Source: Vicinamibacterales bacterium
GTDB taxonomy: Bacteria > Acidobacteriota > Vicinamibacteria > Vicinamibacterales > UBA2999
DNA length: 64,000 nucleotides
Assembly (NCBI GenBank): GCA_050249615.1
Contig: JBFWQE010000013.1
Location: forward strand, 406 to 64,405
Direction: 5' to 3'
Position numbers and translations under genes: made by a program. Of this stretch, positions 52,460 through 54,779 are shown piece by piece (position 1 is the stretch's first letter; each line of letters starts with the position of its first letter). The notes beneath the pieces were generated by a model. That model was given only the letters and a program-made list of their open reading frames with translations, was not told the origin of the DNA and did no database searches.

Positions 52460-53761
52460 ATGGCAGCCAAGCGCAGGAGTGGCGGGCCCTCGTCGAGGGC
52501 GCCACGCGGCCAGGGTCGTTCCACGCAGGACGCCGGCGAGTTCCAGGCCAGGCCGGGCGTGAAGACCGCGCTCATCCGCGGGAACAGTTTCGCCGCCAAG
52601 GCCGTGCAGTACGTAGAAGTGGACGGCCTGGCCATGTTCGAGGGCGACATCGTCCTGGGCACGGTCGAAGAAGTGGAGCGCATGTCGGACCAGGTGCGCG
52701 CGGAGGCGGGCGGCGCCGTGGCCGCCGGCGTCCTCATCAGCGGCACGCAGTTCCGATGGCCCAACTGCCGTGTGCCGTATACCATCGACCCGGCGCTGCC
52801 GAACCAGTCCCGCATCACCGACGCCATCGCGCACTGGGAGGCCCACACGCGCTTCCGCTTCGTCGTGCGGACGACCGAGGCCGACTACGTCACGTTCCGC
52901 CCGAGCAGCGGCTGCTCCTCGTCCGTGGGCCGGCGCGGCGGCCAGCAGTTCGTGAACCTCGCCTCCGGCTGCACCACGGGCAACACCATCCACGAGATCG
53001 GCCACGCCGTGGGCCTCTGGCACGAGCAGAGCCGCGAGGATCGCGACATGTTCATCGCGATCAACTGGGCGAAGATCCAGCCCGGCACCGAGCACAACTT
53101 CAACCAGCACATCACCGACGGCGACGATGTCGGGGCGTACGACTTCGGGTCGATCATGCACTACCCGCGGAACGCCTTCTCCATCGACGGCACCGACACG
53201 ATCACGCCCATCGCGCCCGTCCCGCCGGGCGTGACCATCGGCCAGCGGAGCGGCCTCTCGCCCGGCGACATCGCGGCCGCCAACTCGATGTGCCCGGCCA
53301 AGCTCCTGAAGGAGGGGCCGAAGGATCCGATCAAGGAGGTCCGGAAGGAAATCCTCAAGGAGATCCCGCGCGACACGGTGAAGGAGCAGATCAAGGACAT
53401 CCGGCTCGACACGCGCAAGGAGCTCATCCGCGACACCATCAAGGAGGGCGTGCTCGATCCGGGCCCGATCACGATTCAGGAGAACGTGATCACCCCGCGC
53501 CTGCCGCAGCCCGGGCCGCTGCAGCCGGCACCCGGCGGGGCGCTTCCCTTCGCCGTCGCCACGCCACACGCCGCGGGCGCCCCCGCGGAGGGGGCCGCCG
53601 GGCTGCAGGCCAACATCGAGCAGCTCGATGCTCAGCTGCAGCAGCTGGCCGACCAGCTGGCCCAGGCCGAGAGCGCGCGCCAGTCGTTGCAGGAGCAGTA
53701 CAACGAGACGGCGGCGCTGCTGGCGCAGCTGATCCAGGAGCACGATCAGTCCACCCGGTGA
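52460..53761 (+). CDS. astacin-family (M12A) zinc metalloprotease with KE/KD-repeat and coiled-coil C-terminal extension, no signal peptide seen
   Basis: GGAGG lies 5 nt before ATG 52460 (alternative GTG 52454). HEIGHAVGLWHEQSREDRD (HExxHxxGxxHExxRxDRD) and the Met-turn SIMHY are present. The C-terminus has the LLKEGPKDPIKEVRKEILKEIPRDTVKEQIKDIRLDTRKELIRDTIKEG and LQANIEQLDAQLQQLADQLAQAE heptads. Confidence 0.85.
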   Translation: MAAKRRSGGPSSRAPRGQGRSTQDAGEFQARPGVKTALIRGNSFAAKAVQYVEVDGLAMFEGDIVLGTVEEVERMSDQVRAEAGGAVAAGVLISGTQFRWPNCRVPYTIDPALPNQSRITDAIAHWEAHTRFRFVVRTTEADYVTFRPSSGCSSSVGRRGGQQFVNLASGCTTGNTIHEIGHAVGLWHEQSREDRDMFIAINWAKIQPGTEHNFNQHITDGDDVGAYDFGSIMHYPRNAFSIDGTDTITPIAPVPPGVTIGQRSGLSPGDIAAANSMCPAKLLKEGPKDPIKEVRKEILKEIPRDTVKEQIKDIRLDTRKELIRDTIKEGVLDPGPITIQENVITPRLPQPGPLQPAPGGALPFAVATPHAAGAPAEGAAGLQANIEQLDAQLQQLADQLAQAESARQSLQEQYNETAALLAQLIQEHDQSTR

Positions 53762-53774
53762 CCCGAGGCCACCT

Positions 53775-54779
53775 GTGATCCTGGTCATCTCCCACCAGCA
53801 GGATCCGCACGCCGAACGCGTGATCCGGCACCTCGAGGCCCGGGGGCAGCCCGTGCTGCTGCTGAACCTGTCCGAGCTGCCGGATCGCGCCACCCTCTCC
53901 ATCGAGTACGGCCGCGGCGGCCGTCCTCGCATCGACTATGCGCGTGCCGACGGCCGCACCTACGGGCTGCACGACGTCACGGCGGTGTGGTGGCGGCGCC
54001 CGCAGGCGCCGGATCTGTCGTCGGTCACCGATCCGAACGTGAGCCTGTTCACGGCCAACGAGTGGAACGAGGCCATCAACGGGCTGTGGCAGCTGCTCGA
54101 CGTGCCGTGGATGAACAGCCCGACCCTGGACGATGCCGCGTCGCGCAAGGCGCGACAGTTGCGCGTGGCGGCCGAGGTGGGGCTGAAGGTGCCGCGCACG
54201 CTCATCACCTCGGACCCGGGGCGGGCCCGTCGCTTCGCAGACGAGGCGGGGCCGGCGGGCCTCATCTACAAGACCTTCTCGTGCACGCACGAGGTGTGGC
54301 GCGAGACGCGCCGCCTGCGGGCCGAAGACCTCGCGCACCTGGATGCCGTGCGCGTGGCGCCGGTCATCTTCCAGGAGTTCATCCCGGCCGAGAGCGACCT
54401 GCGCATCACGGCGGTGGGCGGCACGCTGCATGCCGCCGCGATCCGATCGGTCGCGGGCGACGGGCTGGTGGACTTCCGCATGACGGTGGGTGATGCCCAG
54501 CTGTCCGCCGAGACCCTGCCGGACGCCATCGCCACACGGCTGCTGGCGCTCCTGGACCGCCTGGGCCTGGTGTACGGGGCCATCGACATGCGCCGGACAC
54601 CGGACGGCGAGTACTACTTCTTCGAGGTCAACACCGCGGGCGAGTTCCTGTTCATCGAGGACCGGACGGGCCAGCCCATCGCGGAGGCCATCGCGAACTG
54701 GCTGTCGAAAGGTGTCACGCCAACACGAGGAACACGAAGGACACGAAGGGCGCACGAAGCGGTATCAGGGAGGGCCTGA
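53775..54779 (+). CDS. MvdC/MvdD (MdnC)-like ATP-grasp peptide ligase (graspetide-type macrocyclase)
   Basis: GTG at 53775 lies 13 nt after the protease stop, with a GAGG RBS. ILVISHQQDPHAERVIRHLEARG, VTAVWWRR, LRITAVG and YGAIDMRRTPDGEYYFFEVNTAGEFLFIE parallel microviridin ligase MdnC as I recall it. The last ~20 codons lie in an (ACACGAAGG)n repeat. Confidence 0.75.
   Translation: MILVISHQQDPHAERVIRHLEARGQPVLLLNLSELPDRATLSIEYGRGGRPRIDYARADGRTYGLHDVTAVWWRRPQAPDLSSVTDPNVSLFTANEWNEAINGLWQLLDVPWMNSPTLDDAASRKARQLRVAAEVGLKVPRTLITSDPGRARRFADEAGPAGLIYKTFSCTHEVWRETRRLRAEDLAHLDAVRVAPVIFQEFIPAESDLRITAVGGTLHAAAIRSVAGDGLVDFRMTVGDAQLSAETLPDAIATRLLALLDRLGLVYGAIDMRRTPDGEYYFFEVNTAGEFLFIEDRTGQPIAEAIANWLSKGVTPTRGTRRTRRAHEAVSGRA

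Follow-up and report, generated by a model that had tools for sequence, protein, structure and literature searches.

This work deals with a small gene cluster in a 64,000-nucleotide (nt) stretch of DNA from a Vicinamibacterales bacterium (Acidobacteriota; assembly GCA_050249615.1, contig JBFWQE010000013.1), which in its full length is referred to here as the window and whose first letter is position 1 of all coordinates. The cluster is a module of three genes, namely an astacin protease extended by a long C-terminal tail, an ATP-grasp ligase and, in convergent orientation, a gene for a 110-amino-acid (aa) protein that we call p110 (Table 1). One promoter-like pattern is found upstream of the astacin gene, where 0.1 are expected from shuffles, and the GTG at 52454, given in the list of open reading frames (ORFs), falls inside the GGAGG site preceding the astacin ATG. 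The spacer between the two tandem genes is exactly 13 nt, from the astacin stop (TGA, 53759-53761) to the ligase GTG, and p110 ends 17 nt past the ligase stop on the opposite strand. As for a genetically linked substrate of the ligase, the locus holds no short precursor, and the candidate it does offer is the astacin tail, with its DTxKE repeats and its PF motif, which may be what the ligase cross-links. A first-pass annotation of the same DNA had read off the astacin signature, the SIMHY Met-turn, the missing signal peptide, the 13-nt spacer with its GAGG, the 334 aa of the ligase and several blocks of ligase sequence, all of which is confirmed on the sequence; it had missed the p110 gene and the repeat nature of astacin residues ~284-333.

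Table 1. Features of the astacin-ligase-p110 locus, with positions in the window (AF2, AlphaFold2; pLDDT, predicted local distance difference test)
Feature	Position	Strand	Basis or remark
Sigma-70-like promoter candidate, TTGCCT / 17 nt spacer / TATGAT	52347..52375	+	~85 nt 5' of astacin start; consensus match only
GGAGG ribosome-binding site	52450..52454	+	5 nt ahead of ATG at 52460; read from sequence
Astacin-family (M12A) zymogen gene, 433 aa	52460..53761	+	Pfam Astacin 1.3e-48; NCBIfam LegP 312 bits
FEGDI, aa 60-64, putative FXGDI aspartate-switch latency motif	52637..52651	+	invariant in four phyla
Catalytic domain, aa 99-277	52754..53290	+	Pfam Astacin 1.3e-48
Zinc motif HEIGHAVGLWHEQSREDRD, aa 178-196	52991-53047	+	has HEXXHXXGXXH and EXXRXDRD
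Met-turn SIMHY, aa 231-235	53150-53164	+	of the form SxMHY; invariant in homologues
Tandem repeat region, aa 284-333	53309..53458	+	proposed multi-core ligase substrate
LPFAVATPH, aa 362-370	53543..53569	+	most conserved tail motif; proposed leader-equivalent recognition element
C-terminal 54-residue alpha-helix, aa 379-432; LDAQLQQLADQLAQ...LQEQYNETAALLAQ	53594..53755	+	AF2 pLDDT 81-93; conserved across phyla
GAGG ribosome-binding site in astacin-ligase spacer	53765..53768	+	read from sequence
Graspetide-type ATP-grasp ligase gene, 334 aa	53775..54779	+	Pfam, NCBIfam, solved relatives
MvdD pre-ATP-grasp domain, ligase aa 1-115			PF21068, 44.3 bits (cutoff 27)
ATP-grasp domain, ligase aa 122-310			PF08443, 27.6 bits (cutoff 21)
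p110 gene, 110-aa YscW/AspS-fold beta-sandwich protein, convergent	54796..55128	-	AF2, Foldseek, weak Pfam YscW
HVDVDRDGRVSSGD, p110 aa 72-85, EF-hand-like DxDxDG loop	54874..54915	-	invariant D74, D76, D78, R80, G84, D85

The astacin product consists of a disordered basic N-terminus, a pro-segment, the catalytic domain (PF01400, 165.6 bits against a cutoff of 22.5), the repeat tail and the C-terminal helix. An FXGDI aspartate switch and an extended zinc motif define the pro-segment and catalytic signatures of astacins (Gomis-Ruth and Stocker 2023, PMC9848320), and the presence of FEGDI in the pro-segment therefore suggests a zymogen that carries its own latency device. According to the same review, the sole structurally studied bacterial astacin is without FXGDI and the hosts of bacterial astacins are mostly animal-associated; here the animal-type motif, as FEGDI, is seen in the bacterial astacins of the window and of loci L001, L003 and L004, which come from soil and freshwater phyla. 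No hydrophobic signal segment can be found by inspection at the basic N-terminus (MAAKRRSGGPSSRAPRGQGRSTQDAGEF...), so that the canonical secretion signal peptide of the family is absent by this criterion, and aa 1-31 are predicted to be disordered (AF2 pLDDT below 40). The full-length model was built on a shallow alignment of 24 rows (pLDDT 64.5) and is used for order and disorder only, not for docking. The protein also exceeds the cutoff of the NCBIfam LegP equivalog NF045530 over aa 34-279 (312 bits against 300), which is a matter of sequence membership only; the name of that family, "Dot/Icm T4SS effector LegP" (T4SS, type IV secretion system), is probably over-specific for an Acidobacteriota-like genome, and since the host is a relative of soil-type Acidobacteriota, the status of a Dot/Icm effector is not implied.

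The tail (aa ~280-433) is made of disordered tandem repeats, with pLDDT values of 33-52, a Pro-rich linker ending in LPFAVATPH, and a long helix which, as far as the model goes, is probably a coiled coil. The repeats comprise eight [DE]xxK[DE] units, three of them being DTxKE (D305, D317, D325), and none of 200,000 shuffles reached the observed motif counts. At the DNA level the window astacin gene has a tandem repeat of period 36 (53344-53423) and the astacin tail of locus L011 a duplication of period 24 in 5.8 copies, both of which are recent. Across homologues, copy number varies from 2 to 11 and the spacers vary as well, whilst the D, T, K and E residues that would serve as nucleophiles and acceptors do not vary, and the only spacings to stay fixed are those within the motif, namely D(i)-K(i+3), T(i)-E(i+3) and the adjacency of K and E. 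The LPFAVATPH motif fits the signature that Makarova et al. 2022 (PMC8939145) give for leaders, Phhx(1,2)h. Four proteins that could have passed for stand-alone tail precursors (P0123, P0124, P0132, P0133) were rejected, as they are contig-end truncations or frameshifted astacin pieces in long-read assemblies.

On sequence grounds the ligase is clearly classed as a graspetide-type synthetase. The first-pass annotation had asked whether it sides with MvdC/MvdD or with RimK/GshB profiles, and NCBIfam answers for the former, with TIGR04187 at 4e-73, MvdC at 6e-56 and MvdD at 8e-55, against 2e-11 for the RimK family and 3.5e-3 for glutathione synthase. Its best solved relatives are all graspetide synthetases (9bou, MdnB 5ig8, MdnC 5ig9, AMdnB, CdnC 7mgv and PsnB 7drm), with full-length alignments to MdnB, MdnC, CdnC and PsnB, whereas a RimK structure reaches only 3e-6; a function of the RimK/GshB type was rejected on these profile scores and this ranking. 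None of the curated NCBIfam cutoffs is reached, however (246 of 350 bits for TIGR04187, 190 of 425 for TIGR04185 and 186 of 475 for TIGR04184, the latter two being the MvdC and MvdD equivalogs), and the enzyme therefore belongs to a separate subfamily. Some 1300 homologues are detectable, the top 120 at 58-92% identity, and proteins of Lysobacter and Pseudoxanthomonas are 63-67% identical to it.

The order of astacin with tail, ligase and convergent p110 is kept in every astacin-type locus with enough DNA, and the module is seen in Acidobacteriota, Gemmatimonadota, Nitrospirota, Chloroflexota and Lysobacter, that is, in five phyla. These loci come from context look-ups in a Lysobacter genome, a Nitrospira metagenome-assembled genome (MAG) and a contig of the Joint Genome Institute, together with Vicinamibacterales, Gemmatimonadales and Chloroflexia MAGs from a genome scan; the nearest relative is the locus of a Vicinamibacterales MAG, at 92-95% identity. 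Outside the trio the neighbours are unrelated between loci and no other gene is conserved, and a tblastx comparison of nine loci, covering 700 nt on either side, upstream of the astacin and beyond p110, gave only high-GC noise of 20-37 bits and no conserved small ORF, in agreement with the failure of the first-pass annotation to find a short precursor. The adjacency of protease and ligase, a survey of which it had proposed, is thus far beyond chance. Among the defence models of PADLOC the sole match is a weak one of the LmuB coiled coil to the tail helix (4e-5), which we judge spurious, and with no other model matched an anti-phage defence system was rejected. One locus of the same type (L013, 8141-10033, a long-read assembly with a frameshifted astacin) lies a few kilobases from SIR2_2 and AAA_15/AAA_23 genes, which are characteristic of defence islands.

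Such a coupling is not new to the literature, although the first-pass annotation knew of no described example. Makarova et al. 2022 (PMC8939145) delineated an ATP-grasp "Branch 7" with Lysobacter antibioticus and Pseudoxanthomonas among its members. Its loci contain peptidases belonging to several unrelated families and, frequently, a homologue of YscW; the authors could predict no precursor, and their guess was that the ligase is fed with what the peptidases cut from other proteins of the cell. Carter et al. 2026 (PMC13097080, supplementary information) listed 65 biosynthetic gene clusters as graspetide group 30, with Astacin (PF01400) in 98.5% and YscW (PF09619) in 80% of them, and their RODEO-predicted precursor is the YscW-like protein of ~110 aa (a Streptomyces homologue, Fig. 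S7, logo of n=67); the group has had no experimental characterisation (PMC13097080). The window trio of ligase, M12A astacin and YscW-like protein falls within both groupings, and the protease-ligase coupling was therefore known already. Neither paper characterises the group or mentions a tail with repeats and a PF motif on the peptidase, which in the survey described below is the element that tracks the ligase. Elsewhere in the searchable literature no paper was found that pairs a graspetide with an astacin, and for ATP-grasp together with YscW only that of Makarova et al. was found.

The published precursor prediction makes p110 the first protein to consider. Its AF2 model is a compact 7-strand beta-sandwich (pLDDT 93.7; predicted template-modelling score 0.85), for which Foldseek gives the AspS pilotin 5wec as best match (TM 0.72, E 7.5e-6), and Pfam YscW (PF09619) scores 21.0, slightly under its cutoff of 22.6. 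Pilin-like isopeptide domains were dismissed as relatives in favour of the AspS pilotin fold, since they reach a TM of only 0.35-0.45 with E above 0.01. A conserved block, "RDTSLADAP", is common to p110 and the AspS pilotin, and the invariant HVDVDRDGRVSxGD aligns at profile level with the EF-hand loops of calmodulin and calcineurin B, making Ca2+ binding probable as judged from the sequence. The protein has neither signal peptide nor lipobox, starting directly at strand 1 (MTLHLTIVS), and no secretin gene is near it in the examined loci. It is present in 19/19 astacin loci with at least 400 nt downstream, so that the "two-gene unit" of the first-pass annotation becomes one of three genes, and in 0/16 non-astacin loci; that is, p110 follows the astacin domain and not the ligase.

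In the scheme that follows from the RODEO call, p110 would be the graspetide precursor and the astacin its maturation or resistance protease. The scheme has in its favour the prediction of Carter et al. for the homologous Streptomyces proteins, the position of p110 next to the ligase in every one of those 19 loci, and its invariant Thr and Asp residues (D27, T28, D32, T68, D74, D76, D78, D85). It sits badly, however, with a compact pilotin-like sandwich, with convergent transcription, and with the absence of p110 from all 16 non-astacin loci, where ligases of the same clade have tails upstream of them; the prediction itself is a computational one. The conserved Thr and Asp residues are accounted for without cross-linking by the block shared with AspS and by an Asp cluster that aligns to EF-hand loops and probably binds Ca2+, and this, together with the way p110 tracks the astacin, indicates that the RODEO assignment is probably a false positive. 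We consider a precursor role for p110 distinctly unlikely, and take the protein for an astacin-specific partner, our guess being a chaperone or an inhibitor.

The tail, on the other hand, is also found where there is no astacin. A search of 1.84 billion representative proteins with a tail profile yielded 149 matches, of which the weak ones (eukaryote-like low-complexity proteins, MgtE_N, DUF6745) were treated as coiled-coil or low-complexity noise. Beyond astacins, the tail repeats and a PF[AV][VLM]ATPH motif turned up in an M43 metalloprotease, a tyrosinase-domain protein, a protein with an unknown N-terminal domain, and a family with an N-terminal domain of ~100 aa and up to 16 DTLKE units. 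Four non-astacin tail proteins, one of each of four architectures, were looked up in their genomic context, and 4/4 are encoded 25-120 nt ahead of an MvdD-type ATP-grasp gene in the same orientation; for the three available with DNA, that ligase is 41-43% identical to the one of the window. The members of the last family (P0263, P0272, P0277, P0301; locus L015, 307-1527) are non-enzyme proteins of ~300-420 aa, in which a conserved N-terminal domain of the type F.EFLKSAP... is combined with as many as 16 DTLKE units and with PFVLATPHQA at the C-terminus. Two of these genes were checked for their neighbours, those of P0277 (on L015) and of the related P0283, and both are directly upstream of an MvdD-type ligase.

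A metagenome scan seeded with the ligase gave 80 loci at 43-92% identity, 45 of them with an upstream ORF of enough sequence, which Pfam assigns to Astacin (21), Tyrosinase (6), Peptidase_M43 (6), Trypsin_2 (6) and Peptidase_S8 (3). In a joint alignment of these five enzyme families the dipeptide P-F is invariant (45/45) and the next Thr nearly so, and PFxxxTPH is found in ~40/45. All the surveyed upstream proteins have tandem repeats of T/K plus D/E before the PF motif, in forms that depend on the subclade (DTxKE, TLKFRDD/KxxDD, PTLxxxD), and a T-h-K anchor occurs 239 times in 42 proteins with a spacing of mostly 8, 9 or 12 residues. A signal peptide was found on none of the inspected N-termini. 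The upstream genes of L049, L055, L060, L062, L065, L069, L072, L079 and L083-L094, for example, encode signal-less S1, S8 and M43 proteases and tyrosinases, whose tails run from TLKFRDD / KxxDD or PTLxxxD repeats through PF[VI]L[AS]TPHH to a helical C-terminus, and whose ligases are 43-51% identical to that of the window. In all examined loci the tail-bearing protein sits immediately upstream of a ligase of the window clade. In a tree of the ligases, the loci with S1, S8 and M43 proteases and those with tyrosinases are interleaved on a shared background of KxxDD / ThxxxD repeats, and L017, with an unknown N-terminal domain and DTxKE repeats, pairs with a DTxKE astacin, which suggests that ligase and tail travel together whilst the N-terminal domain is swapped. 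The tail, then, and not the protease domain, would seem to be what tracks the ligase.

These results bear on the proposal of Makarova et al. for Branches 7 and 8 (PMC8939145), in which the peptidase cuts cellular proteins encoded elsewhere and the ligase cyclises the peptides released. The lack of a classical short precursor in the locus and the variety of unrelated peptidase families accompanying the ligase are both as one would expect from it. The proposal leaves unexplained, however, why one C-terminal tail, its PF invariant, should recur on unrelated peptidases, why it should be found in the same position on tyrosinases and on non-enzyme proteins, and why its copy number should change by tandem duplication, and we regard it as very improbable. 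The same survey bears on the first of the three alternatives of the first-pass annotation, in which cross-linking would make of the tail a built-in inhibitor of the microviridin kind, or a second pro-domain, that silences a signal-less protease in the cytoplasm. Characterised multi-repeat or caged graspetides such as plesiocin and the microviridins do inhibit proteases (Carter et al. 2026, introduction, PMC13097080), and all the inspected tail enzymes are without a signal peptide. Yet the known graspetide inhibitors hit serine proteases, whereas the partners of the tail include two metalloprotease families, tyrosinases and non-enzymes; the occurrence of the tail on four protease families, tyrosinases and non-enzymes argues against an active-site-specific inhibitor. 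The astacin, moreover, already has a pro-segment with an Asp switch, and AF2, with low confidence there, leaves the tail undocked on the catalytic domain. The idea thus finds no specific support, and we hold it to be quite improbable.

What fits best is another of those three alternatives, a protein-sized graspetide substrate, the residues proposed there (280-345) being the ones that hold the tandem DTxKE / [DE]xxK[DE] repeats. We suggest, with a probability of roughly 0.6, that the ligase cross-links the C-terminal tail of the astacin encoded upstream of it. What is observed is the anatomy of the genes, their family assignments, the tail with its repeats and the statistics of co-occurrence, and every chemical step in what follows is one we infer. 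The astacin would be made as a latent zymogen, held by its FEGDI Asp switch and without a signal peptide. The ligase would dock on the PF motif and the helix, which would together act as a leader-equivalent element placed C-terminal to the cores, and would form, at the expense of ATP, side-chain esters (Thr to Asp/Glu) and/or isopeptide bonds (Lys to Asp/Glu) within each repeat, the candidate links being Asp(i)-Lys(i+3) and Thr(i)-Glu(i+3). As only the within-motif spacings are fixed, small rings at the level of the motif are the simplest reading. The product would be a protein-borne, multi-core graspetide, whose stapled tail could stay on the enzyme, link chains by way of the coiled coil, or be cut by the protease into small cyclic peptides; p110 would be a partner of the astacin and no substrate of the ligase. 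Astacins are reported to prefer acidic residues at P1', and cleavage would then fall ahead of each Asp of DTxKE. That such a reaction is feasible is indicated by the graspetide synthetase ThfB, with which a C-terminal "follower" leader works at only a 2-fold loss of rate (PMC13003496) and which also cyclises substrates with tandem repeats or of the size of a protein, and can cross-link chains that have assembled (PMC12291112), as well as by the repeats of corallotide (PMC13097080), to which we return below.

The tail could also be the substrate with the bonds formed between chains, the coiled coil aligning the tails so that Lys or Thr of one chain is joined to Asp or Glu of another, in stabilised enzyme oligomers or networks. 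A confidently predicted helix of 54 residues behind the repeats, and the alternation of K and D/E with fixed spacing, would suit such an arrangement. The natural graspetide synthetases described in the examined literature, however, make intramolecular rings, and some tails have Gly- or Pro-rich spacers, or a PF motif in the middle of the protein with repeats on both sides of it, for which independent rings in each motif are a better fit; we think bonds between chains rather unlikely.

Several points weigh against the tail as substrate in whichever form. It contradicts the only published precursor prediction for group 30, which names p110 and not the tail, and the searchable literature has no mass-spectrometry data on group 30 or Branch 7. 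Rings from i to i+3 are undocumented for graspetides, the smallest found being the i to i+4 rings of corallotide, and the repeat motif varies so strongly between subclades (DTxKE, PKD, TLKFRDD, PTLAIRD) that no single cross-link topology can be read from it. The Phhx(1,2)h pattern is a loose signature, and tail and ligase could be inherited together by reason of docking or regulation instead of catalysis on the tail. As for the survey, its material is short metagenome contigs with ORFs called from stop to stop, and the N-terminal domains of individual loci were assigned in part by regular expressions, although the Pfam totals agree.

A wider interpretation, which we offer tentatively and would sooner expect to see revised than upheld, is that this ligase clade is a protein-level modification system and not a pathway for peptide natural products. 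A portable "grasp-tail", made of tandem T/K plus D/E motifs, PFxxATPH and a helix, would then be carried by signal-less enzymes of at least five unrelated families (astacin, M43, S1, S8 and tyrosinase) and be stapled, within or between chains, by a dedicated ATP-grasp enzyme, thereby controlling their stability, latency, assembly or export. Such a system would be the natural counterpart of engineered graspetide protein cyclisation, would resolve the missing precursor of Branch 7 and would overturn the published precursor call of group 30. Even the narrower proposition, that the tail is the substrate, would make a sizeable branch of graspetides interpretable, would oblige precursor-finding tools to search inside large ORFs and downstream of cores, and would mean that nature uses graspetide chemistry on full-size enzymes; the short DTxKE units, being variable in copy number, could serve as compact tags for enzymatic stapling.

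The genes around the module in the window are of various sorts. To its left, an integrase-like ORF, over-extended by the stop-to-stop call, is directly followed by a tRNA-Ser(GGA) gene at 50909-50998 (49669-50998 in all), and the two may mark the edge of an integrated element. A 339-aa ORF at 51107-52126 (+) matches the start of the beta-lactamase/penicillin-binding-protein fold over only ~65 residues (aa 123-187) and has an N-terminus that looks membrane-spanning; its product may be a truncated or divergent serine hydrolase. Beside p110, the gene at 55220-56488 (-) encodes 422 aa with a hydrophobic N-terminal segment and, at the C-terminus, an intramolecular chaperone domain of the Peptidase_S74 type (2.8e-13), which is the module that cleaves itself in tail spikes of phages and in endosialidases. 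Further on, LigD-like pieces lie at 57316-59746, namely an ATP-dependent DNA ligase ORF (57316-58401, +) and a polymerase/primase-like ORF (58346-59746, -), both recognised from their translations only.

In comparison with known systems, the astacin has in common with crayfish astacin, meprin beta and Legionella LegP the zinc motif, the SxMHY Met-turn and the FXGDI pro-segment, and differs in having no signal peptide, in its repeat tail and helix, and in being coupled to an ATP-grasp ligase. In the same way, p110 has the fold and the V.V..D.SLADAPA block of the pilotin-fold lipoproteins AspS, YscW and YbaY, and differs from them in the absence of lipobox and signal peptide, the inserted DxDxDG loop and the lack of secretin genes nearby. 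The tail may be compared with the precursor of corallotide (group 15, CorA/CorB), a protein of ~22 kDa with five tandem KxxxD motifs, each of which receives a small Lys-Asp lactam from a TIGR04187-type ligase (PMC13097080); TIGR04187 is also the best NCBIfam match of the window ligase. CorA, however, stands alone, with an N-terminal recognition region and without an enzyme domain, and its ring is hydroxylated by a 2-oxoglutarate oxygenase, whereas the motifs of the window tail are DTxKE, Thr included, and N-terminal to a conserved PF motif. Group 32, with a Spirosoma example, has "diverse families of neighboring proteases" and again a ~100-aa protein as predicted precursor (PMC13097080, supplementary information), and the group may likewise need to be re-examined for tails on its proteases.

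The parallel with microviridin drawn by the first-pass annotation holds for the enzyme and fails for the substrate. The ligase has the fold and the domain order of the microviridin ligases and aligns over its full length with MdnB (5ig8, 7e-39) and MdnC (5ig9, 5e-32), and a recognition motif of proline plus hydrophobic residues exists in both systems, as PFFARFL in microviridin and PFAVATPH in the window tail. Unlike the microviridin loci, with MdnA, MdnB and MdnC, the window locus has no short precursor, a single ligase instead of two, and its recognition motif downstream of the cores; no ORF with a PFFARFL leader and a TxKxPSDxxE/D core was found, which keeps the locus outside the microviridin class (graspetide group 1). 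Precursors fused to enzymes are not without precedent among ribosomally synthesised and post-translationally modified peptides, since in borosins (e.g., OphMA) the core peptide is a C-terminal extension of an enzyme domain. There the fused enzyme is the modifying methyltransferase itself, whereas the protease or tyrosinase fused to the tail described here is not the ligase. The substrates of the ThfA/ThfB system, lastly, are laboratory constructs, of which the module in the window would be a natural counterpart.

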